A stretch of 32,000 bases of DNA, from assembly GCA_030167145.1 (NCBI GenBank), contig CP126532.1:3960001-3992000 (forward strand), written 5' to 3'. A program made the position numbers and the translations under genes. The notes beneath the pieces are model-generated. The model was not told the origin of the DNA. It was given only the letters and a program-made list of their open reading frames with translations, and searched no databases. Source of the stretch: Ktedonobacterales bacterium. Lineage in GTDB: Bacteria; Chloroflexota; Ktedonobacteria; Ktedonobacterales; JADMIN01. Position 1 is the first letter of the stretch. Every line of letters starts with the position of its first letter. Positions 3,939 through 26,189 of the stretch are shown in pieces.

Positions 3939-4190
3939 AACGCCCCTCGTTTCAAGCAGGAATCATCTCAAATCGCGGATGTCGCCGGTACGTACCGTCG
4001 CGCCACCTCCGCACAGCTTCCAGACTATCAGATAGTATGCCATCTCGCCAAGTGCCGTATGCCGAATGCCTGTCTCCCCCTACCACATCCACGTCAATCG
4101 CGTAGAATACCCATTGTGGCAGACACGCGAACAGCCCGCTTGGCCCCTGGTGGGGCTAGACATGTATGTCCGCCTCTGCTCTCTTTCCCA

Positions 4191-4248
4191 CCCGCGCAGA
4201 CGGGTTTCGCGGCCGTGGGCCATTCGGGCGCGGTTTCAACCGCCCGCT
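4191..4248 (+). repeat. Copy A of a dispersed 58-nt triple-hairpin element
   Basis: CCCGCGCAGACGGGTTTCGCGGCCGTGGGCCATTCGGGCGCGGTTTCAACCGCCCGCT. It is roughly 80-90% identical, with no gaps, to 14813-14870 and 19261-19318, in the same orientation. Confidence 0.85.
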
Positions 4249-4269
4249 ACTTGTCCCAGGAGACACATT

Positions 4270-5742
4270 TTGACCGGCGAACCAGCGCTAGAAACGCCTA
4301 CAGACGACACCACCATCATCCTCGACCTGCGCGGGCGCGACCTCATACTCATCCCGCCCGCGTCGCTCTGGGCGCTGGATGACGCTGCGCTCTATATCAC
4401 TCTCTTCGGCCCCGACGATGCGCCCGCCGCCCCTGCGCTGCTTGCCCGCGACCGCCGCCACCGCTTCCTCCGCGCCCGCCCTATAGACTTCTCGCGCCTA
4501 CGCGCCGCGCTCCTTGCCACCAATAGCTGGCGCGTCGAAGTCGCCTTCCCCACCGCCCCTTTGCTCCCTCTCCAGCCCACCCTGCAAATGTCCCCGCGTC
4601 CCTACCAGGAAGAAGCGTTGCTCGCCTGGCGCGCGGCAGGGTATCGTGGCGTCGTCGTGCTGCCTACCGGCGGCGGCAAGACCCTCGTCGGCGCGCAGGC
4701 TATCGCTGATCTCGGCCTCTGGGCGCTGATCGTCGTGCCCACCATAGACCTGCTCGGCCAGTGGCGCGATGCCCTCGCGCACGCCCTGGCCCTGGCCAGC
4801 GACGAACATCTCGGCGTCTACGGCGGCGGCAGCCATGACGTGCGCCCCATCACCATCATCACCTACGAATCCGCGCAGCTTCACCCCGAACTCCTGCGCC
4901 AGTTTGGCGTGCTCGTCTTCGATGAGTGCCATCACCTCCCCGCGCCCACCTACCGCCAGATCGCCGAAGGCGCGTATACCCCCTATCGCCTCGGCCTCAG
5001 CGCCACGCCAGAGCGCGCCGACCTGGAGCATCTCGCGCTCACTCAGCTCATCGGCCCCGAAGTCTACCGCCGCGCCCCCGAAGAACTCTCCGCCGCCCGC
5101 TATCTCGCCGCCTATGATGAGCAGCAGTTGACCGCGCAACTCAGCCCCGACGACCTCGCCCGCTACTCCGCCGCCCGCGCCACCTACCGCGATTTCCTGT
5201 CTCGTCGCCGCATCGCCATCACCTCGCCCGCTGATTTTCAGCGCAAGATTCTCTGGGCCAGCGCCCGCGACTCCGCCGCCCGCACCGCCATGCTCGCCTG
5301 GCGCGAGGCGCGTTCGCTCGCCCTCAACGCTCCGGCCAAGCTGGCGCTGCTCGAAACGCTCTTTGCGCGCCACCAGGATGAGCGCGTACTCGTCTTCAGC
5401 GAATACAACACCCTGGTCGAGCAGGTCAGCCGCCGCTTCTGCATCCCCCAGATCACCTATAAGACACCCGCCGATGAGCGACGCCAGATTCTCGAACGCT
5501 TCCGCGCGGGCCAGTACACCAAGCTCGTCACCGGTCGCGTGCTCAACGAAGGCGTGGACATTCCCGATTGCGGCGTAGCCATCATCGTCAGCGGCACCAG
5601 CACCCGCCGCGAGTATATTCAGCGCCTTGGGCGCGTGCTGCGTCCCAAAGCCACCCGCGCCATCCTTTACGAACTCATCACTGAAAATACCACCGAAGAG
5701 CGTGTCGCCGAGCGGCGGCGGGGACAGAAGGGGCAGCATTGA
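4270..5742 (+). CDS. xpb: XPB/Ssl2-type SF2 DNA helicase (ERCC3-like)
   Basis: Motif I 'VLPTGGGKT', motif II 'FDECHH', motif III 'LGLSATPER', motif V 'LNEGVDIP', motif VI 'QRLGRVLR'. The start is placed at TTG 4270 because AGGAGA (4258-4263) lies 6 nt upstream. The ORF-track start at 4066 would translate through repeat copy A. Confidence 0.85.
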   Translation: MTGEPALETPTDDTTIILDLRGRDLILIPPASLWALDDAALYITLFGPDDAPAAPALLARDRRHRFLRARPIDFSRLRAALLATNSWRVEVAFPTAPLLPLQPTLQMSPRPYQEEALLAWRAAGYRGVVVLPTGGGKTLVGAQAIADLGLWALIVVPTIDLLGQWRDALAHALALASDEHLGVYGGGSHDVRPITIITYESAQLHPELLRQFGVLVFDECHHLPAPTYRQIAEGAYTPYRLGLSATPERADLEHLALTQLIGPEVYRRAPEELSAARYLAAYDEQQLTAQLSPDDLARYSAARATYRDFLSRRRIAITSPADFQRKILWASARDSAARTAMLAWREARSLALNAPAKLALLETLFARHQDERVLVFSEYNTLVEQVSRRFCIPQITYKTPADERRQILERFRAGQYTKLVTGRVLNEGVDIPDCGVAIIVSGTSTRREYIQRLGRVLRPKATRAILYELITENTTEERVAERRRGQKGQH

Positions 5743-10606: not shown

Positions 10607-10693
10607 GCCGAAGTGGTGGAATCGGTAGACACGCAACGTTCAGGGCGTTGTGCGCGTACGCGCGTGGGGGTTCGAGTCCCCCCTTCGGCACCA
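10607..10693 (+). tRNA. tRNA-Leu (anticodon CAG), class II long variable arm, CCA encoded
   Basis: Acceptor GCCGAAG/CTTCGGC, anticodon loop TTCAGGG, T-loop GGTTCGAGTCC. Close by eye to E. coli tRNA-Leu(CAG). Confidence 0.95.
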
Positions 10694-10696
10694 CCC

Positions 10697-10786
10697 GGAA
10701 GGGTCGCATAGAGGTCTAGTGCGACGGTTTGCTAAACCGTTGAGTCCGCAAGGGCTCCGAGGGTTCGAATCCCTCCCCTTCCGCCA
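10697..10786 (+). tRNA. tRNA-Ser (anticodon GCU), long variable arm, CCA encoded
   Basis: Acceptor GGAAGGG/CCCTTCC, anticodon stem-loop ACGGT-TTGCTAA-ACCGT, T-loop GGTTCGAATCC. It lies 3 nt after tRNA-Leu. Confidence 0.95.
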
Positions 10787-10994: not shown

Positions 10995-11531
10995 ATGTTT
11001 CGTCACCGCCGCGAGGAACGGCAAGAGCAGCAGCCCGATTTCGGACCCCATCGCTATCAGATGCGCGAAAAGATGCTCACCATCGGCGACGACTTCTGGA
11101 TCGAAGACGCCCATGGCCAGCGCGCCTACAAAGTGGACGGCAAAGTCCTCCGCGCCCGCAACACCCTGATCCTCGAAGATCCCAACGGTCGGGAAGTCGC
11201 CAAAGTGCAAGAGCGCATGCTCCGCGCCCGCGACTCCATGGCCATCGAGCGTGACGGCCAGAAAATCGCCGAAGTCCACAAAGCCTTCGTCAACGTCATG
11301 CGCGACCACTTCAAGATTGACCTCGCTGGCCGTGGACCCGACATGGAAGCCAAAGGCAACATCGTCGGCCACGAATTCGAGATCACCCAGAACGGCGCCA
11401 AAGTCGCTGAAATCTCCAAGAAATGGTTCCGCGTCCGCGATACCTACGGCGTCGAGATCGAACCCAACCAGGACGACGCCCTCGTCCTCACCGCCGTCAT
11501 CTGCATTGACCAGATGACCGACGAACACTAG
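10995..11531 (+). CDS. LURP-one-related (DUF567, tubby C-terminal-like fold) protein
   Basis: 'MLTIGDDFWIEDAHGQRAYKVDGK' and 'ISKKWFRVRDTYGVEIEPNQDDALVLTAVICIDQM' are characteristic of this family. An AAGGAG RBS lies upstream. Confidence 0.75.
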   Translation: MFRHRREERQEQQPDFGPHRYQMREKMLTIGDDFWIEDAHGQRAYKVDGKVLRARNTLILEDPNGREVAKVQERMLRARDSMAIERDGQKIAEVHKAFVNVMRDHFKIDLAGRGPDMEAKGNIVGHEFEITQNGAKVAEISKKWFRVRDTYGVEIEPNQDDALVLTAVICIDQMTDEH

Positions 11532-11554
11532 CCCAACTCCTAATCCCAGCGCGC

Positions 11555-11592
11555 GAGCGGTCGGAAGCGCCACATCCGCCTCCCGACCGCTC
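11555..11592 (+). terminator. Perfect 10-bp hairpin downstream of the LURP-one gene
   Basis: GAGCGGTCGG (11555-11564) / CCGACCGCTC (11583-11592) with an 18-nt loop. No U-tract. Confidence 0.3.
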
Positions 11593-11595
11593 ATG

Positions 11596-11659
11596 CCCAC
11601 ACCCACACCCACACCTACTCCATACCCACATTCTTTGCGTCACCCACATTCTTTGCGTC
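11596..11659 (+). repeat. (CCCACA)x3 microsatellite followed by an 18-nt tandem duplication
   Basis: CCCACA at 11596, 11602 and 11608. ACCCACATTCTTTGCGTC at 11624-11641 and 11642-11659. Confidence 0.9.
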
Positions 11660-11845
11660 GCTGGCTTATTCACCACCTATGCCAACCCCACGCACCCATG
11701 ACATTTATGCCGCGAACTCGCTTTACCACCCCTCTCGCCACCCGCCGCGCTCTCATCATACGATGCCCCCCGGCATTCATGCATCCTCGCCTGTGCTCCG
11801 GCCATGGATGGCCGAGAGCATGCCCCCCACTCCCTCCCCGCCATG

Positions 11846-11854
11846 TGCTATAAT
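11846..11854 (+). promoter_or_regulatory. Extended -10 element TGCTATAAT
   Basis: Exact TGn-TATAAT about 85 nt upstream of the tnpA-like gene. The same motif class recurs at 19408, 21307 and 28380. Confidence 0.3.
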
Positions 11855-11900
11855 CCTGTAGGTGAATCGCACCAATATACAAAATTCGTCGCGTCTCCTC

Positions 11901-11929
11901 TGGACATTCGTTCCAGCACGCGATACAAT
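11901..11929 (+). promoter_or_regulatory. Candidate promoter TGGACA-17-TACAAT, implying a leaderless or near-leaderless tnpA-like mRNA
   Basis: -35 TGGACA (11901-11906) and -10 TACAAT (11924-11929). The predicted start site near 11936 is next to the ATG at 11938. Confidence 0.35.
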
Positions 11930-11937
11930 AGGTGTAG

Positions 11938-12390
11938 ATGTGGCGTATGGATATACAGAATAAGTCCACCACGTGGCACATCACGTATCACTTTGTCTGG
12001 GGGCCAATGCGCGCCAAACCCTGCCTCATCGGCGAGATCGCGCAGCGGCTCGAAGCGTTGATCGCGGAGCGAGCTGACGAAGAAGACTATCAGCCCATCA
12101 CGCTGCTCATCCTCCCAGACCGGGTATACATGGCGGCAGCGGCGCCGCCAACCGTGGCTCCGCATTCGATTATGTGTCAGGTCAAGGCCTACACGTCGCG
12201 CATCCTGCGCGACGAGTTCCCCGAACTGACACGCATTCCCAGCCTGTGGACACGAGCGTATCTCGTGCTCGCCGGCGACGAGCTTGCTGCCGAGGAGGTA
12301 CTTCAGCGCTTCGAAGAGGCGCAGCCTCAACGCCGGCCCCGTGGCCGGCCACCCAAGTCCCGCCCGGAATCCGACATCACCGATGTCTAG
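11938..12390 (+). CDS. IS200/IS605 TnpA-like (Y1/HUH fold) protein with catalytic residues replaced and a C-terminal AT-hook
   Basis: It aligns by eye along its length to IS200/IS608 TnpA ('WHITYHFVW', '[11 protein letters not shown]'). However, the HUH block DH(I/V)H(L/M)L is 'PDRVYM' and the Tyr block 'QYIENQ' is 'QRFEEAQ'. The C-terminus '[10 protein letters not shown]' matches the AT-hook core. No tnpB and no element ends were seen. Confidence 0.75.
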
Positions 12391-12452
12391 CGCGACGCTC
12401 GCGCGATGGATTCCGCGCGACAGCATCAACCCAAGGTAGAGAAGAGATAGAC

Positions 12453-14729
12453 ATGCCCAAATGTGAACGCTGCAAACAGAATGACGCCCGTGTCCGCATG
12501 GATGCCGTGGTCAACGGCCGCCGCGAACAGCACTTCTTCTGCCGCGAATGCGCCGAAGAGCTGATGGGCGGCGAACTCAGCGGCTTCAACGGCATTAGCG
12601 GCCAGAACTCCGGCAACATCTTCGGTGGCATGGGCGCGGGCAGCCCCTTCGGCTTCGCCTCGCAGCCAGGCGGCGGCGCTACCGCCACTGCCCAGCGCAG
12701 CCCCGACAAACACAGCAAAACCCCCACCCTCGACCAGTTTGGCCGCGACCTGACCGGCGAGGCGCGTGAGGGCAAGCTCGACCCCGCCGCTGGCCGCGAC
12801 CGCGAGATTCGGCGCATGCTCACCGTGTTGGGCCGCCGCCAGAAGAATAATCCCGTCCTCATCGGCGAACCCGGCGTTGGCAAAACCGCCATTGTCGAAG
12901 GCATCGCCCGCCGCATCGTAGACGGCAACGTTCCGCCTACCCTGCGCAACGCCCGCATCGTCTCGCTCAACATCGGCGGCGCAGTCGCTGGCGCGATGTT
13001 CCGTGGCCAGTTCGAGGAACGCATCAAGGCCATTCTGGAGGAAGTCCGCCAGAACCCCGATGTCATCCTCTTCATTGACGAGCTGCACACCGTCGTCGGC
13101 GCGGGCGCGGCAGAGGGCGCGGTTGGCGCCTCCGACCTGCTCAAGCCAGCCCTCGCTCGTGGCGAACTGCGCTGCATCGGCGCCACCACCCTCGATGAGT
13201 ATCGCAAGCACATCGAGAAAGACGCCGCCCTGGAGCGCCGCTTCCAGCCCGTCAAGGTAGATGAGCCATCCGTCGCGGAAGCCATCACCATGCTGGGCAT
13301 CGTGCGCGAGCACTACGAGCGCCATCACGGTGTACGCATCCCCGACGAAACCATCGAGGCCGCCGTCAAGCTCTCCGACCGCTATATCAATGACCGCTTC
13401 CTACCGGACAAAGCCATTGATGTGATGGACGAAGCCGCTTCCAGCGTCAAACTCGACGCCATCGAAGCGGGCAGCTACGGCCCTGAGCTGGTTTCTTCGC
13501 TCGAAGCGCAACTTGTCGCAATTCAGTCCGAGAAAGAGGCCGCGGCCCTCGCCGAAAACTACGAGCACGCCGCCACCCTCCGCCAGCGCGAGATTCAGGC
13601 GCAGGCGCAACTCGACGACGCCCGCGCCCATGCGGGTCAGTCTGCCGCGCTCGTCGTTGAGCCAGGGGACATCGCCCGGGTTGTCGAAAACTGGACCGGC
13701 GTTCCCGTCACCCAGATGCTCGAATCCGAGCGCGTTAACCTGCGCAACCTCGAAGAGCAGCTCCAGACGCACGTCATCGGCCAGAACGAGGCCATCAGCG
13801 CCGTCTCGCGCGCCATCCGTCGCTCGCGCGCCGGCCTGAAAGATCCGCAGCGCCCCATCGGTTCGTTCCTCTTCATGGGACCCACCGGCGTCGGCAAGAC
13901 CGAGCTTGCCAGGGCGCTCGCCGCTGAACTCTTCGGCGGTGAAGACGCGATCATCCGCCTCGACATGTCCGAATACATGGAAGGCCACACCGTCTCGCGG
14001 CTCTTCGGCAGCCCTCCGGGCTACGTCGGCCACGACGAAGGTGGTCAGCTTACCGAAGCGGTTCGCCGCCGCCCGTACAGCGTGATCCTCTTCGACGAAA
14101 TCGAGAAGGCGCATCCAGAGGTCTTCAACGCCCTCTTGCAAATTCTCGACGACGGACGCCTCACCGACGGCCAGGGCCGCACCGTGGACTTCAAGAACAC
14201 GGTGGTCATCATGACCAGCAACGTCTCCACGCCGGAGATCAAGCGCGCCGACATCGGCTTCCTGGCCCCGCGCTGGGGCGAGGCCACCAGCGAGCACGAC
14301 AGCGAAGAGGCCAAGCGCCAGGCCAAGGCCCTCGAAGGGCTGCGCCGCGCCTTCCGGCCAGAGTTCATCAACCGGATTGACCAGATCGTCGTCTTCCATG
14401 CGCTTGGTCGCGACGAGCTGCGCCAGATCGTTGACCTGCTCATGGCCAAGGTCAGCGCCCGCCTGACTGAGCAGCGCATCACGCTCAGCTATGGCGATGA
14501 CCTGCGCGACTTCCTCATGCGTGAGGGCTTCGACCAGGAATTCGGCGCGCGGCCACTCCGCCGGGCCATCCAGACCCACGTAGATGACGCGCTCGCCGAT
14601 GCGCTACTCGCTGGCACGATCCAGCCCGGCCAGACCGCCGTCCTTAGCGTCGCGGATGACGCCGTGCGCGTCAGCGCGGAGGGTGAGCCACTCGCCCTCC
14701 CCGCCCCAGCGCCAGCCCACGCCGCCTAG
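12453..14729 (+). CDS. clpC: ClpC-like two-ring AAA+ unfoldase; the Clp N-domain is replaced by a McsA-type C4 zinc ribbon
   Basis: D1 'GEPGVGKT' and 'ILFIDELH'. UVR/M-domain '[17 protein letters not shown]'. D2 'GPTGVGKT' and '[11 protein letters not shown]'. The N-terminus '[36 protein letters not shown]' is followed by a Gly-rich linker. The start is trimmed to ATG 12453; the ORF-track start at 12174 overlaps the previous gene. Confidence 0.9.
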
Positions 14730-18830: not shown

Positions 18831-19240
18831 GCGAAATCGGCAGAATCGGCAACTCAGATGTGCGGCGAAAACGGCGAAAAATGCACAACCAAAAAATCGG
18901 CAAAATCGGCCACTGGTGGGGCGGACATTCCTGTCTGTCCACGACCGCCAGCATCGGCCACATCGGCCACTGGCACTGCTTGCCAAGAGCGAAAATCGGC
19001 CATATCGGCCAGTTCGAGACATCCATTATGCGAAATCGGCAGAATCGGCAACTCCGGGCAACCCGCTGGTACAGGGATTACCCACGGCCTTCAGGCCGGG
19101 AGCCTCCTTTATCACCCCTCGTCACCATTCTCGCTCACCAAAAAATCGGCAAAATCGGCAACTCCCATCTGTGGCCATTTCGGCAACTGGTGAGGCGGAC
19201 ATTCCTGTCTGCCTGCGGCCACATCGGCCATTTCGGCTAC
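18831..19240 (+). repeat. Array of ATCGGC-N3-ATCGGC dyads (9-bp period) with recurring longer blocks
   Basis: 13 exact ATCGGC, all on the + strand, with no GCCGAT. The 25-nt block at 18831-18855 equals 19030-19054, and the 22-nt block at 18889-18910 equals 19138-19159. See findings. Confidence 0.9.
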
Positions 19241-19260
19241 AATCCCTGCTCTGTCCCGAA

Positions 19261-19318
19261 CCCGCGCAGGCGGGTTTTGCGGCCAGCGGCCATCCAGGCG
19301 CGGTTTCAACCGCCCGCT
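19261..19318 (+). repeat. Copy C of the 58-nt triple-hairpin element
   Basis: CCCGCGCAGGCGGGTTTTGCGGCCAGCGGCCATCCAGGCGCGGTTTCAACCGCCCGCT. It lies about 130 nt upstream of the 19450 start. Confidence 0.85.
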
Positions 19319-19407
19319 CCGTGCTATTCATGGCCGAGAGTATGGCCGCGAGTATGCGGACGCCTCAGGCCTTTTGGGTAGGTAGATATACTGGCGGGCG
19401 CACATTC

Positions 19408-19416
19408 TGCTATACT
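19408..19416 (+). promoter_or_regulatory. Extended -10 element TGCTATACT
   Basis: It lies 34 nt upstream of ATG 19450. An AAAAAGGAG RBS sits at 19434-19442. Confidence 0.4.
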
Positions 19417-19449
19417 CTCAGCCGATTCTCAGCGAAAAAGGAGTGTACG

Positions 19450-21183
19450 ATGCGCGAGAGCGTAACCATCGGCAACGGCAGCGCCAGCGAAGCGCACGAA
19501 GCGCGTAGCCTACGGCGACGCCTGCTCTGCTATTGGAGCGTGGCCGTCGTCAACATCGGCTCCGCCCTGCTGCCCATCTGGCCCTGGCGCTATCGGTTGC
19601 TCGCGCATCGTCTACCGCTCGCCATCGTCCTCACCGCGCAGAACCTCTCCGTCCTGCTCGGCATCGCCATGCTGCTGCTGGCCTATCCCGCCGCGCGACG
19701 CCATCGCGGCGCCGCCCACATGCTGATGCTCTGCGCCGGTCTGGCCATCCTCGCCAACATCGTCAAGGGACTCGATGTCGAAGAGGCCGCCATCAACACC
19801 ATCCTGCTCATCTCCCTCTGGCGCGCACACCATCAATTTGAGGCCTTCCCCCTGCGCTACACCGCAATTGACCTCGCTCGCATTGGCATATTGCTCGCCC
19901 TGCTCGCGCGCCTCTACAGCCTCGCTGGCTCAGGGCTGCTCGCCGCGCTGCACCTCCTCGTGCTCCGCGAAAAGGCCCTCTTTCCCTGGCTCGACCACCT
20001 TGCCCACATGCTCACCGCCAAGCTCGAATTCCAGCGCCTTTGGTTCCACGAATCGCAACTCCTCGTGCCACTCTTCCTGTTAACCTGCTTCCTCATCCTC
20101 TCATGGCGCTCGGCCTGGCACGGCCATCTCCGCGCCAGCGACGGCGGCGACCTGTATGGGCGCTTTGGCCGCGCCTCGCACAACTCTCTTGCCTACATCG
20201 CCAACCGCTCCGATGTCAGCACCTTCATAGACCCCGCCGGACGCGGCGCCATCACCTATCGCCAGGTCGGGCGTGTTGCCCTTCAAGTTGGCGCAATCCT
20301 CAGCGCGCCAGCGGACCGCGCGGCGGTATACGCAGGTTTCCGCGCCTTCTGCAAAGCCGAGCGCCTTATCCCCGCCGCCGTCGCCCTCACTGCGGATGAG
20401 CGGCTCGTCGCCGCTGCCAGCGGCATGCGCTCGCTTTCCATCGGCACAGAGGCCGTCGTAGACCTTCCTGCGTTCGCCAGCGAACGGCTTGGCAAAAAGA
20501 TGCGCTGGGCGCAGCGGTCGCTGCAAAAGCGCGGCTACACCGTCGAACTGCTCAGCGCGGCAGAGATCACCCCGGCAGTGCGCATCCGCCTCGACCACAT
20601 AGACCGCGAGTGGCGCGACTTCCGCGGCGGCCAGGCGCATGGCTACTGCATGACCCTGGGGCGCTTCCCCACCAACCACGACCCGCACTGTCTCATCGCC
20701 ATCGCCCGCGACGCCGCTGGCGCACCCATCGCCTACCTCACACTGCTCCCTGGCGGCGAGGGCTACTATTCGCTCGACCTCACCCGCCGCAGCTTCGCCG
20801 CGCCCAACGCTGCCATAGAATTCCTGCTTATCGAAGTCCTCACCCTCCTCCGCGCACGCGGCGCGCAGATCGTCAGCCTCAACTTTTCCACCCTCTCCTC
20901 GCTCTCCTCGCGGCGTGGCGGCGCCCTCCTCATGCGAACGCTAAGCAAAGCGTTCCAGCTTGGCTCACTCGAAGCCTTCAACGCCAAGTTTCGCCCACGC
21001 TGGGAGCCGCGCTTTCTCGTCTTCCCTACCTGGTGGAACCTGCCCGATGTGGTGTATGCGGTCCTGGTGATGGAAGGCGTCGAACGCATGGCCATCAACG
21101 CCTGCGCTCGTGTGCTGCGGCGCACTTTGCGCCCATCAGCCCATCCGCTCGCCAAACCCGTAGTCCATGCCGAGCATGCGTGA
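19450..21183 (+). CDS. MprF-like protein: N-terminal TM region plus DUF2156 (aminoacyl-phosphatidylglycerol synthase C-terminal) domain
   Basis: 'GKKMRWAQRSLQKRGYTVELL', 'DREWRDFRGGQAHGYCMTLGRFP', 'YYSLDLTRR', 'FNAKFRPRWEPRFLVF' fit the DUF2156 pattern. The ORF-track start at 18916 runs through the repeat array and was rejected. Confidence 0.75.
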   Translation: MRESVTIGNGSASEAHEARSLRRRLLCYWSVAVVNIGSALLPIWPWRYRLLAHRLPLAIVLTAQNLSVLLGIAMLLLAYPAARRHRGAAHMLMLCAGLAILANIVKGLDVEEAAINTILLISLWRAHHQFEAFPLRYTAIDLARIGILLALLARLYSLAGSGLLAALHLLVLREKALFPWLDHLAHMLTAKLEFQRLWFHESQLLVPLFLLTCFLILSWRSAWHGHLRASDGGDLYGRFGRASHNSLAYIANRSDVSTFIDPAGRGAITYRQVGRVALQVGAILSAPADRAAVYAGFRAFCKAERLIPAAVALTADERLVAAASGMRSLSIGTEAVVDLPAFASERLGKKMRWAQRSLQKRGYTVELLSAAEITPAVRIRLDHIDREWRDFRGGQAHGYCMTLGRFPTNHDPHCLIAIARDAAGAPIAYLTLLPGGEGYYSLDLTRRSFAAPNAAIEFLLIEVLTLLRARGAQIVSLNFSTLSSLSSRRGGALLMRTLSKAFQLGSLEAFNAKFRPRWEPRFLVFPTWWNLPDVVYAVLVMEGVERMAINACARVLRRTLRPSAHPLAKPVVHAEHA

Positions 21184-22641: not shown

Positions 22642-23025
22642 ATGCAACAGCGGAGAGATTTCAACGGACCTTCAGCGGGCGGCGACCGCCCCGCCAGTGA
22701 TCGCTCAGATCGCGGCGAGCGCGGCGAGCGCCCGGATCGCGGCGAGCGCGGCGAGCGTTCGGGTGGCCCTCGCTACGGCGGCCCGCGCGGGCGCGACTTC
22801 CGTTCCCGCCGCAAGGTCTGCACGTTCTGTGTAGACCATGTTCGCGAGATTGACTACAAAGAAATCTCACGTCTGCGACGGTATCTGTCTGACCGTGGTA
22901 AAATCGAGCCACGGCGCAAGACGGGCACCTGCGCCAAGCATCAGCGCCGGTTGAGCGTGGCATTGAAAAACGCCCGCTTCATGGCGATGTTGCCCTACAC
23001 CGCCGCACATATTCGCGGCTCGTAA
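22642..23025 (+). CDS. rpsR: 30S ribosomal protein S18 with a repetitive N-terminal extension
   Basis: Core '[64 protein letters not shown]'. An AAGGAG RBS is present. The position after rpsF-ssb is conserved. Confidence 0.9.
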
Positions 23026-25923: not shown

Positions 25924-25961
25924 TGGCATGAGAAACTCGCGTGTATCACTATGATTCGACG

Positions 25962-26189
25962 CTACAGATCTGCGCATGCCTCAGTCAGCTTTCCGTTGTC
26001 GAGCAGCCAGCGGGCGAACTCAAGCCGCCGCTCATCCAGCATCCGCTTGAGATACTCATCCTGGTTATGCACCGCACGCCGTAGCTCAACCAGCCGGTTG
26101 ACCTCATCCGTGCTGAAGTTGCCGTGCAGCGTCGCGGGGGCGCCAGGCCCAGGAACGGTATTTGGAGACTCCTGCGGTAGCATATGCAT
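25962..26189 (-). CDS. Small hypothetical protein (75 aa)
   Basis: The start was trimmed to MHMLPQ (complement of 26187-26189) with an AAGGTG-like RBS. No recognisable family. Confidence 0.4.
   Translation of the reverse strand: MHMLPQESPNTVPGPGAPATLHGNFSTDEVNRLVELRRAVHNQDEYLKRMLDERRLEFARWLLDNGKLTEACADL

Follow-up and report, generated by a model that had tools for sequence, protein, structure and literature searches.

What is a transposase-like gene doing, in one copy and in a fixed context, directly in front of a Clp ATPase gene in species after species of the Ktedonobacterales? The question is raised by a 32,000-nt stretch of a Ktedonobacterales bacterium genome (GenBank assembly GCA_030167145.1, contig CP126532.1, positions 3,960,001 to 3,992,000 of the forward strand), which we call the window and from whose first letter all coordinates are counted unless another locus is named. 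The window carries a homolog of TnpA, the Y1 transposase of the IS200/IS605 family of insertion sequences (IS), followed on the same strand by a clpE-like gene. We find that this is a domesticated, catalytically inert TnpA homolog under purifying selection, a conclusion supported by a conserved family of relatives, by the ratio of nonsynonymous to synonymous substitution rates (dN/dS), by the single locus per genome and by strict synteny; that it is domesticated and inert was also the original prediction, made from the letters of this DNA. As to function, we propose that the exapted, catalytically dead TnpA would serve as the dedicated autorepressor of a two-gene operon consisting of its own gene and the clpE-like heat-shock gene, a reading to which we give a probability of roughly 55%. 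The gene and the parts of its product that matter for the argument are these:

11947 to 12390, plus strand: coding sequence for the TnpA(Y1)-like AT-hook protein, catalytically dead; 147 codons and a stop (from fold, family and dN/dS).
12115 to 12132, plus strand: residues 57-62, P-D-R-V-Y-M, standing where active TnpAs have their HUH block, PDHVHL (from alignments).
12310 to 12312, plus strand: Phe122, at the position of the nucleophilic tyrosine (from the multiple alignment with canonical TnpAs).
12331 to 12357, plus strand: AT-hook RRPRGRPPK (residues 129-137), recognized by its motif and lying in a region of low predicted local distance difference test score (pLDDT).
12358 to 12387, plus strand: short C-terminal tail, acidic and disordered (from charge across homologs and low pLDDT).

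An open reading frame (ORF) formally opens at 11938 on the plus strand and ends at 12390, and the 150-aa product first described for this locus corresponds to it. The ORF exists, but the conserved start is the ATG at 11947 (MDIQN...), the majority of homologs beginning MDIQN, MDIHN or MERQN, and the product has 147 aa, not 150. The JGI gene call for this locus begins at Met23 (127 aa), by which the first beta strand is lost. Over nearly its full length the protein matches the Pfam model Y1_Tnp (PF01797; E 1.3e-16, 61 bits, cutoff 23) and the NCBIfam IS200/IS605 transposase model NF033573 (73 bits, cutoff 55), and it has sequence matches to solved TnpA structures (2f4f, 2ec2 and, for IS608, 2a6m), those from Sulfolobus and ISDra2 included. 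An AlphaFold model built from a 54-sequence family alignment (pLDDT 80.5; predicted template modeling score, pTM, 0.72) has the beta-alpha-beta-beta-alpha-beta-alpha order of the Y1 fold. When this model is compared with the PDB by Foldseek, the top matches are IS200/IS605 transposases only (the TnpAs of IS200, IS608 and ISDra2; probability 1.0, template modeling scores of 0.72-0.77, with 2f4f, 2vic and 2fyx among them), while a REP-associated tyrosine transposase (RAYT; REP, repetitive extragenic palindromic), 4er8, ranks far lower (E 2e-4, versus 1e-10 for TnpA(IS200)). Identity to canonical TnpA members is 29-41%. By fold and profile, then, the protein belongs to the Y1_Tnp superfamily, and both the profile cutoffs and the structural superposition uphold an alignment that the original prediction had made by eye along the whole Y1 fold. 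It is without the functional features that define an IS200/IS605 transposase (HUH, tyrosine, mobile context) and should not be filed as one. Database labels within the family (P0002, P0003, P0010 and P0050) read “IS200/IS605 family transposase”, “putative transposase” and “REP-associated tyrosine transposase”. The gene has a GC content of 0.62, and of 0.74 at third codon positions, similar to neighboring genes and in keeping with the host-like codon usage already noted for it; PADLOC gave no defense-system match for the protein.

Where active TnpAs have their catalytic residues, this family has others. The HUH block of the nearest active relatives, PDHVHL, has become PDRVYM, with His replaced by Arg and His by Tyr, in the multiple alignment and in structure-sequence alignments alike. 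Among the 121 family sequences on which all residue counts are based, Arg59 and Tyr61 each occupy the former histidine positions in 121. Divergent members, including those at 45-55% identity, read GAVF, DKVY, ACVY, ALVY or PSRVY in this block, and histidine is found in none of them. Phe122 lies under the catalytic tyrosine both in the multiple alignment with the nearest canonical TnpAs and in the pairwise alignment with Sulfolobus TnpA, the tyrosine motif (R/K)YIE.Q having become QRFEEAQ with the glutamine at +4 retained; a pairwise alignment with IS608 slips by one residue and sets an arginine under the tyrosine, and either way the window protein has no tyrosine there. The family as a whole has Phe in 86 and Tyr in 35 of the 121 sequences at this column, and the hydroxyl is therefore dispensable. 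The counterpart of KYRR is PMRAK. These substitutions had all been called from the letters, and the profile and multiple alignments confirm them. Because the metal ligands are lost, cleavage of single-stranded DNA and strand transfer are predicted to be absent. Two otherwise canonical-looking TnpAs (P0129 and P0144) have a partly degenerate HUH block (PNYVHA and PDYVYL), keep the tyrosine and have no AT-hook, and loss of the HUH histidines may have occurred more than once in the Y1 superfamily.

What the family has gained lies at the C-terminus, where canonical TnpAs in the multiple alignment have no AT-hook extension. Of the hook, G133, R134 and P135 are present in 121 of 121 members and R132 and P131 in 119, and divergent members with an intact C-terminus retain an RGRP or PGRP hook (RVRP in one). 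The Pfam AT_hook score is below threshold (9.2 bits against 17.4; E 1.7), as expected for a 13-residue model, and the AT-hook that had been read from the translation stands on its motif, an R-G-R-P core with basic flanks in a disordered segment, and not on a curated Pfam score. The tail that follows is net negative in 93% of 120 homologs, with a median charge of -3 and a median length of 14 residues. Two cysteines are also nearly fixed, Cys26 (12022-12024) in 121 of 121 members and Cys77 (12175-12177) in 120 of 121, and canonical TnpAs are mostly without them; in a stress regulator, such a pair could sense redox state or metal.

A protein search gave 338 relatives. The best 120 of these, which we examined, are about 150 aa long and 66-96% identical to the window protein, and the named ones are Ktedonobacterales; most homolog clusters are represented on one contig only. 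In an exhaustive search of 1.84 billion cluster representatives, a few 50%-identity clusters score 118-226 bits and are followed by canonical TnpAs at 98 bits or less and ~40% identity or below, a sharp score gap that separates the dead family from the canonical one. Nei-Gojobori dN/dS is ~0.17 overall and 0.06-0.24 for close pairs, and each genome has one TnpA-like locus, the exception being a metagenome-assembled genome (Bin_8) with a second, partial match at a contig end. The 32-kb window contains neither a tnpB gene nor IS ends, so that the statement that the gene has no tnpB and no terminal hairpins stands in the IS sense; what it missed is a pair of conserved 25-bp inverted-repeat elements at the 5' end of the gene, described below.

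Transposase labels in the databases, and the presence of IS200/IS605 elements and tnpB genes in these genomes, would suit a decaying IS remnant, or else an active transposase working with unconventional catalytic residues. We consider both extremely improbable. A dN/dS of ~0.17 speaks against them, as do more than 120 intact homologs in which the replaced residues are themselves invariant, a single locus held in a fixed chromosomal context across the whole order, the missing tnpB partner and IS ends, and the lack of a histidine at either HUH position in any member. On dN/dS, conservation and synteny we also reject the decaying pseudogene that the original prediction had allowed for. Two observations on single loci belong here. 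In L053, a long-read metagenome assembly, both the TnpA-like and the clpE-like genes are frameshifted (4001-4810), through either assembly error or decay of the operon. Loci L001-L003, from one species, carry a solo tnpB (OrfB_IS605/Cas12f-like, 428 aa) ~330 nt downstream of the clpE-like gene (L001 11212-12498); it is probably an unrelated insertion, and it shows that IS200/IS605 elements occur in these genomes.

The strongest regularity of the locus is its neighbor. In a synteny scan of 67 loci, with one genome per GTDB species, all 50 Ktedonobacterales species loci of the family (52-78% identity) have the same AAA+ clpE-like gene directly downstream on the same strand, with an intergenic gap that runs from -14 to ~170 nt and is sometimes an overlap, whereas the pairing is absent from 17 of 17 canonical TnpA loci (identity 41% or less). 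The divergent members P0122 and P0123 show it too, as do L132-L134, three loci reached from the Clp side. The gap in the window is the 62 nt already reported, from the stop codon ending at 12390 to the clpE-like ATG at 12453. The genes flanking the pair vary between species. In the window, tRNA-Leu(CAG) and tRNA-Ser(GCT) genes (10607-10786) and a LURP-one-related gene (LOR, PF04525; 10995-11531) lie upstream of the operon, a neighborhood that differs in other species.

12453 to 14729, plus strand: clpE-like Hsp100 gene, 758 aa (from Pfam domains, zinc-finger matches and synteny).

The product of this gene carries a C4 zinc finger at its N-terminus, followed by a Gly-rich linker. Pfam assigns it two AAA+ modules, an AAA_lid_9 and a ClpB_D2-small domain, and gives no match to Clp_N. 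ClpE (PDB 29hb, E 5e-4) and McsA (NF053706, E 6e-6) both align with the C-x2-C...C-x2-C segment of the finger, and the IGF loop of the protein, read from the translation, is DIGFLAP. With a zinc finger, no Clp_N and an IGF loop, the downstream gene therefore classifies by its sequence as a ClpE-type Hsp100, not the clpC-like gene it had been taken for, and its product probably works with ClpP. JGI places the clpE-like start later (743 aa).

So obligatory a pairing, with frequently tight or overlapping junctions that suggest stoichiometric co-expression, also invites a different account: the TnpA-like protein could work mainly with the ClpE-like unfoldase, as its adaptor or anti-adaptor or by tethering it to the nucleoid by way of the AT-hook, and be no transcription factor at all, in which case another regulator would bind the upstream elements. 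The adaptor-binding Clp_N domain is replaced here by an McsA-type zinc finger, the acidic disordered tail could be a docking or degron segment, and an AT-hook by itself has low sequence specificity. We nonetheless think this account rather unlikely. Conservation is strongest in the Y1 core, including the remodeled active site, which in homologs is the nucleic-acid-binding surface; two further objections arise from the promoter region and from orthologs of the clpE-like gene, to which we return below.

If the protein is instead a regulator of its own operon, the upstream DNA is where its sites should lie. We aligned this region for 44 loci, the window and 43 species-level loci, and find the following in the window (IR, inverted repeat):

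11846 to 11854, plus strand: promoter P1, extended -10 TGcTATAAT (read from the sequence).
11857 to 11881, no strand assigned: IR1, candidate operator O1, TGTAGGTGAATCGCACCAATATACA, of the form TGTAG-N15-ATACA (from a regex scan and family conservation).
11885 to 11922, plus strand: stem-loop potential (CGCGT...ACGCG, CTGGA...TCCAG) overlapping the P2 -35 (from folding against shuffles).
11901 to 11929, plus strand: promoter P2, TGGACA (11901-11906), a 17-nt spacer and TACAAT (11924-11929) (from a promoter scan).
11933 to 11957, no strand assigned: IR2, candidate operator O2, TGTAGATGTGGCGTATGGATATACA, of the form TGTAG-N15-ATACA, lying across the start codon at 11947 (from conservation in the 44 loci).

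The same layout thus occurs twice, ~76 bp apart (75-78 bp in most loci): a sigma70-like -10 hexamer, 2-5 nt, TGTAG-N15-(C/A)TACA, and AAT(T). A TATAAT-like hexamer 2-5 nt 5' of IR1 is conserved in the alignment, in many loci with a TTGGCG-like -35 at 17-nt spacing, and the predicted P1 transcription start falls inside the left arm of IR1. In nearly all family loci IR1 itself measures exactly 25 nt and sits at -89 to -93 relative to the start codon; in the window an AT tract, AAATT (11882-11886), comes directly after it. The P2 promoter, found by a scan with 10 of 12 matches where 0.4 would be expected in shuffles, is conserved as C(T/G)TGACA and TATAAT. Downstream of it, the TGTAG of IR2 is invariant in 44 of 44 loci and the ACA of its right arm likewise. 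This right arm doubles as the codons for residues 2-4 (MDIQ or MDIH), in an N-terminus that is disordered in the AlphaFold model, and since the “CA” of codon 4 is fixed while Gln and His alternate, the constraint on IR2 seems to act at the nucleotide level. Elements are exactly 25 nt long in all 44 aligned loci, and each of the window's two follows its -10 after 2-4 nt. Conservation of the upstream DNA persists at a dS above 1.5, where synonymous sites are saturated. The half-site centers are 20 bp apart, or about two helical turns, and each element lies between two AT tracts, the -10 hexamer before it and AA(A)TT after it.

Variants of this arrangement occur at the edges of the family. A divergent clade (L049-L052) has one unit only, TAAAAT-N3-GTAG-N15-CTACAGGATT...ATG, and L072 and L075 retain the 25-nt units. 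In a subclade with spacers of 115-170 nt between the two genes (L004/L015, L017, L021, L024, L028, L032, L035, L036, L047 and L133) a third element is found ~25 nt short of the clpE-like start; it reads CCGTGTAGAG-N~10-CCCTAC(A) and has no obvious -10 hexamer in front of it. The stem-loop over the P2 -35 (11885-11922) has a mean z of -0.9 over the 44 loci, with stems of 6-10 bp whose sequence differs at the same place; L072 has there a sequence resembling CIRCE (controlling inverted repeat of chaperone expression) with 4 mismatches (TTAGCAGAC-N9-CATTGCTAA). The stem-loop may be what remains of a CIRCE site, or else may fold in the leader of P1 transcripts.

The TGTAG element is almost restricted to this promoter region across ~400 kb of related loci and very rare elsewhere. 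Shuffles of the window contain 0.28 TGTAG-type elements on average by the same regex scan. Two further hits in the window are probably due to chance: one (22830-22858) has N19 spacing and lies inside the S18 gene, and the other (25942-25966, minus strand) is a 25-nt TGTAG-N15-ATACA in the intergenic region after a HemN-like radical-SAM gene, with no adjacent -10 hexamer. A metagenome-wide scan for TATAAT-N2-6-TGTAGAT-N11-ATCTACA found 51 stretches, all unrelated and mostly on low-GC contigs, one of them 5' of a GntR gene and one within a coding region. The targets that had been suggested for the protein within the window, a hairpin element at 4191-4248 and an array of ATCGGC repeats, are not supported: neither the 4191-4248 element nor the AATCGGC repeats at 18831-18913 contains TGTAG or has a link to the gene, and an inverted-repeat scan of the window gave no related hairpins. 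The region 18831-18913 consists of two direct-repeat pairs, AAATCGGCAGAATCGGCAA and AAAATCGGCAAAATCGGCC, just 5' of an MprF-like (LPG_synthase_C) gene (18916-21183); these look like operators of a different regulator and bear no relation to the TGTAG elements.

This distribution also bears on whether the protein could be an architectural one that binds without sequence specificity, in the manner of HMGA, as an activator or anti-silencer at AT-rich promoters, or could regulate targets elsewhere in the genome. AT-hook proteins of the HMGA/CarD type have an R-G-R-P core with basic flanks and then an acidic tail, and the hook and tail described here resemble them; the promoter core is AT-rich (GC 0.46, against 0.64 for the window), and our scan for sites in this genome covered 32 kb. 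Unlike HMGA/CarD-type factors, the present protein has a single hook, carried on a folded Y1 domain, and would be dedicated to one operon. Strict linkage to that operon and elements specific to it argue for a dedicated local role, elements placed on transcription starts are typical of repression, and there is no further promoter-linked element in the 32-kb window. We regard a general architectural or distant role as decidedly unlikely.

A natural control is provided by clpE-like genes that have no TnpA-like gene upstream. Using the first 125 residues of the ClpE-like protein as query, we identified four such orthologs, one in Dictyobacter kobayashii (L128) and three in metagenome assemblies (L129, L130 and L131). 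Each has 2-3 CIRCE-like elements of the HrcA type, for example TTAGCAATC-N9-GAGTGCTAG, with 2-5 mismatches to the HrcA operator consensus TTAGCACTC-N9-GAGTGCTAA as used in PMC7464140. The elements flank and directly follow a TATAAT or TATACT hexamer, in the following regions:

L128, 3850 to 3940: CIRCE-like region.
L129, 3760 to 3965: CIRCE-like region.
L130, 2789 to 2870: CIRCE-like region.
L131, 2766 to 2850: CIRCE-like region.

The TGTAG element is absent from all four loci (0/4). Conversely, all family loci checked from the Clp side carry TGTAG elements, and CIRCE-like sites with at most 4 mismatches occur in the 50 species-level family loci (L005-L054) at 1 per 365 kb. Control of the clpE-like gene would thus lie either with CIRCE or with the pair of TnpA-like gene and TGTAG elements, and the two arrangements appear mutually exclusive. 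Such a swap places the clpE-like gene in the negatively controlled class of heat-shock genes and links TGTAG elements to loci that encode the TnpA-like protein. It also supplies the remaining objections to a role as a ClpE partner, which leaves unexplained why TGTAG goes with the gene and CIRCE with its absence, and which must reckon with ClpE-like orthologs that exist without a TnpA-like gene, so that the latter is not needed for ClpE function. In these assemblies the clpE-like gene is split into 2-3 ORFs or, in L131, cut by the contig end; frameshifts, assembly errors or pseudogenization may account for the splits.

Granting that the elements are the protein's sites, are they read as duplex or as hairpins? 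The alternative to a duplex operator, which we judge unlikely, is that structure-specific binding was retained and that the protein sees the elements as extruded hairpins or cruciforms, as melted single strands, or at the 5' end of the mRNA. One hairpin could be held by each monomer, as in the IS608 synaptic complex, so that a dimer would bridge elements 76 bp apart and form a switch sensitive to supercoiling or temperature. DNA hairpins are the known ligands of the fold (the hairpin complexes 2vic, 2vju and 2xm3 are among the PDB matches), each locus has two elements just as each TnpA dimer has two binding sites, and the elements lie exactly where the promoter melts. Their GTAG/CTAC arms, moreover, recall the conserved GTAG tetranucleotide that is carried by the DNA partner of TnpA_REP and read by that protein beside REP hairpins (PMC8266576), a likeness that is a lead and not a test.

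The folding results divide the two elements. IR1 has a modest hairpin potential, often with stems of 7-9 bp (mean z -0.8 against controls with shuffled inner sequence), which would suit hairpin recognition; IR2 has essentially none (minimum free energy 0 to -3 kcal/mol, mean z +0.6). No compensation is seen for substitutions in the arms, the right-arm change from C to A being unmatched at G5 and position 7 showing C:A mismatches in 7 loci, and RNAalifold finds no conserved pairs in the 44 upstream regions. Rfam gives no match in 11500-12500 at E<=1. Loops of 11-15 nt would be far larger than those at the ends of IS608 or ISDra2, and since transcription is expected to start inside TGTAG at the usual spacing, the RNA would lack the left arm. 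Nor is there support for deriving the elements from the hairpin at the left end of an IS: the inverted repeats 5' of five canonical tnpA genes, the nearest ones, are unlike TGTAG-N15-CTACA. Because IR2 forms no hairpin, the arms do not co-vary and RNAalifold finds no structure, we favor double-stranded operators over hairpins. A specific version of hairpin recognition, in which the HUH-dead dimer would read DNA shape, capture both TGTAG elements as they are extruded or melted at the twin promoters, and be released by heat, by supercoiling or by extraction through the ClpE-like unfoldase, so that the operon comes on, seems to us rather improbable. If true, a transposase active site would have been turned into a transcription switch that senses DNA structure, with the invariant Arg59 and Tyr61 possibly contacting nucleic acid in place of the metal.

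Based on these data, we return to the autorepressor and to how it might work. The architecture would fit a self-regulated operon, with the TnpA-like gene first, candidate operators overlapping its own promoters, and the clpE-like gene second, and the exchange with CIRCE lends this support. The TnpA-like protein is probably a dimer, by analogy with its homologs, and the dimer would bind the two half-sites of each element on double-stranded DNA, with the AT-hooks inserting into the AT-rich minor grooves of the flanking -10 hexamer and AAATT. Binding would block initiation, since the elements lie over the transcription starts and O2 also over the ribosome-binding region and start codon. Proteotoxic or heat stress would inactivate the repressor and induce the operon, possibly by way of unfolding or degradation of the repressor by the ClpE-like ATPase with ClpP, by analogy with CtsR. 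That the protein would be a repressor rather than an activator we infer from operator position alone.

Several points weigh against this proposal. The functional assignment is comparative throughout, and the set of TnpA-less controls is small (4 loci) and phylogenetically clustered. The native ligand of the Y1 fold is folded single-stranded DNA and not a long double-stranded operator. The right arm of IR2 is weakly symmetric (often ATACA, CGACA or CAACA), and part of the conservation of TGTAGGTGA could reflect a transcription-start or Shine-Dalgarno function. Lastly, another regulator could bind the elements: GntR-type proteins use TGT...ACA palindromes, and the one chance metagenome hit noted above lay 5' of a GntR gene.

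How does the proposed regulator compare with systems already described? With the IS200/IS605 TnpAs (IS608, ISDra2 and Sulfolobus; 2a6o, 2vju, 2xm3 and 2f4f) it shares fold, sequence homology and core size. It differs from them in that both histidines are replaced, the tyrosine is dispensable (F/Y), KYRR is degenerate, and the C-terminus has gained an AT-hook and acidic tail; the single-copy gene keeps a fixed chromosomal position, always beside a clpE-like gene, with no tnpB and no subterminal hairpins. RAYTs (TnpA_REP) are, like this family, single-copy, vertically inherited and domesticated relatives of TnpA(IS200). However, RAYTs have HUH and tyrosine intact, cleave REP DNA and have hundreds of REP copies, whereas here the catalytic residues are lost and 2-3 elements lie at the gene's own promoter. 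Judged by its sequence, the protein is not a RAYT: its score on the RAYT profile lies far below the cutoff (NF047646; 14.5 bits against 80), it has lost the catalytic residues, and the 32-kb window shows no REP arrays.

As a functional analog we propose CtsR. In Firmicutes ctsR heads the clpC operon, CtsR represses clpC, clpP and (tightly, through five sites) clpE, and Clp ATPases feed back on the system (PMC12634643). The present locus would likewise have a repressor gene first in a Clp ATPase operon and operators overlapping promoters, and clpE encodes the same type of zinc finger. There is no homology: CtsR is a winged-helix protein that acts on a direct heptad repeat, and the protein here is a Y1 fold with an AT-hook facing an inverted 25-bp element. 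With HrcA-CIRCE the locus shares inverted repeats at or next to the -10 of a heat-shock gene, at positions that correspond to those in the TnpA-less orthologs. It differs in the sequence of the repeat (TTAGCACTC-N9-GAGTGCTAA versus TGTAG-N15-CTACA), and HrcA is encoded elsewhere and controls a regulon. In concept, the nearest precedent from the same IS200/IS605 family is TldR, a TnpB-derived, RNA-guided repressor whose nuclease has been inactivated (PMC10705468). TldR comes from TnpB and is guided by RNA; here it is TnpA that would have been recruited, and recognition is proposed to be by protein and AT-hook. To our knowledge, domesticated bacterial transposases are few, and the IS200/IS605 cases described are the RAYTs, which are still catalytic, and TnpB-derived effectors (Cas12 and TldR). 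In the searchable literature we came upon no Y1 TnpA that is catalytically dead and has become fixed as a gene of its host. We propose that the TnpA-like family forms a new, inert branch within the Y1 family and acts as a regulator derived from a transposase.

If this regulatory role is true, both proteins of the very abundant IS200/IS605 family have been recycled into transcription regulators. It would also represent a clean displacement of one regulator by another, in which a repressor of transposase origin, with a new operator, took the place of HrcA and CIRCE at one and the same heat-shock gene, and the combination of a Y1 fold with an AT-hook would be a new compact module for DNA recognition. 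For the Ktedonobacteria, the “transposase” label assigned by annotation pipelines inflates counts of mobile elements and hides what may be a regulator of the stress response.

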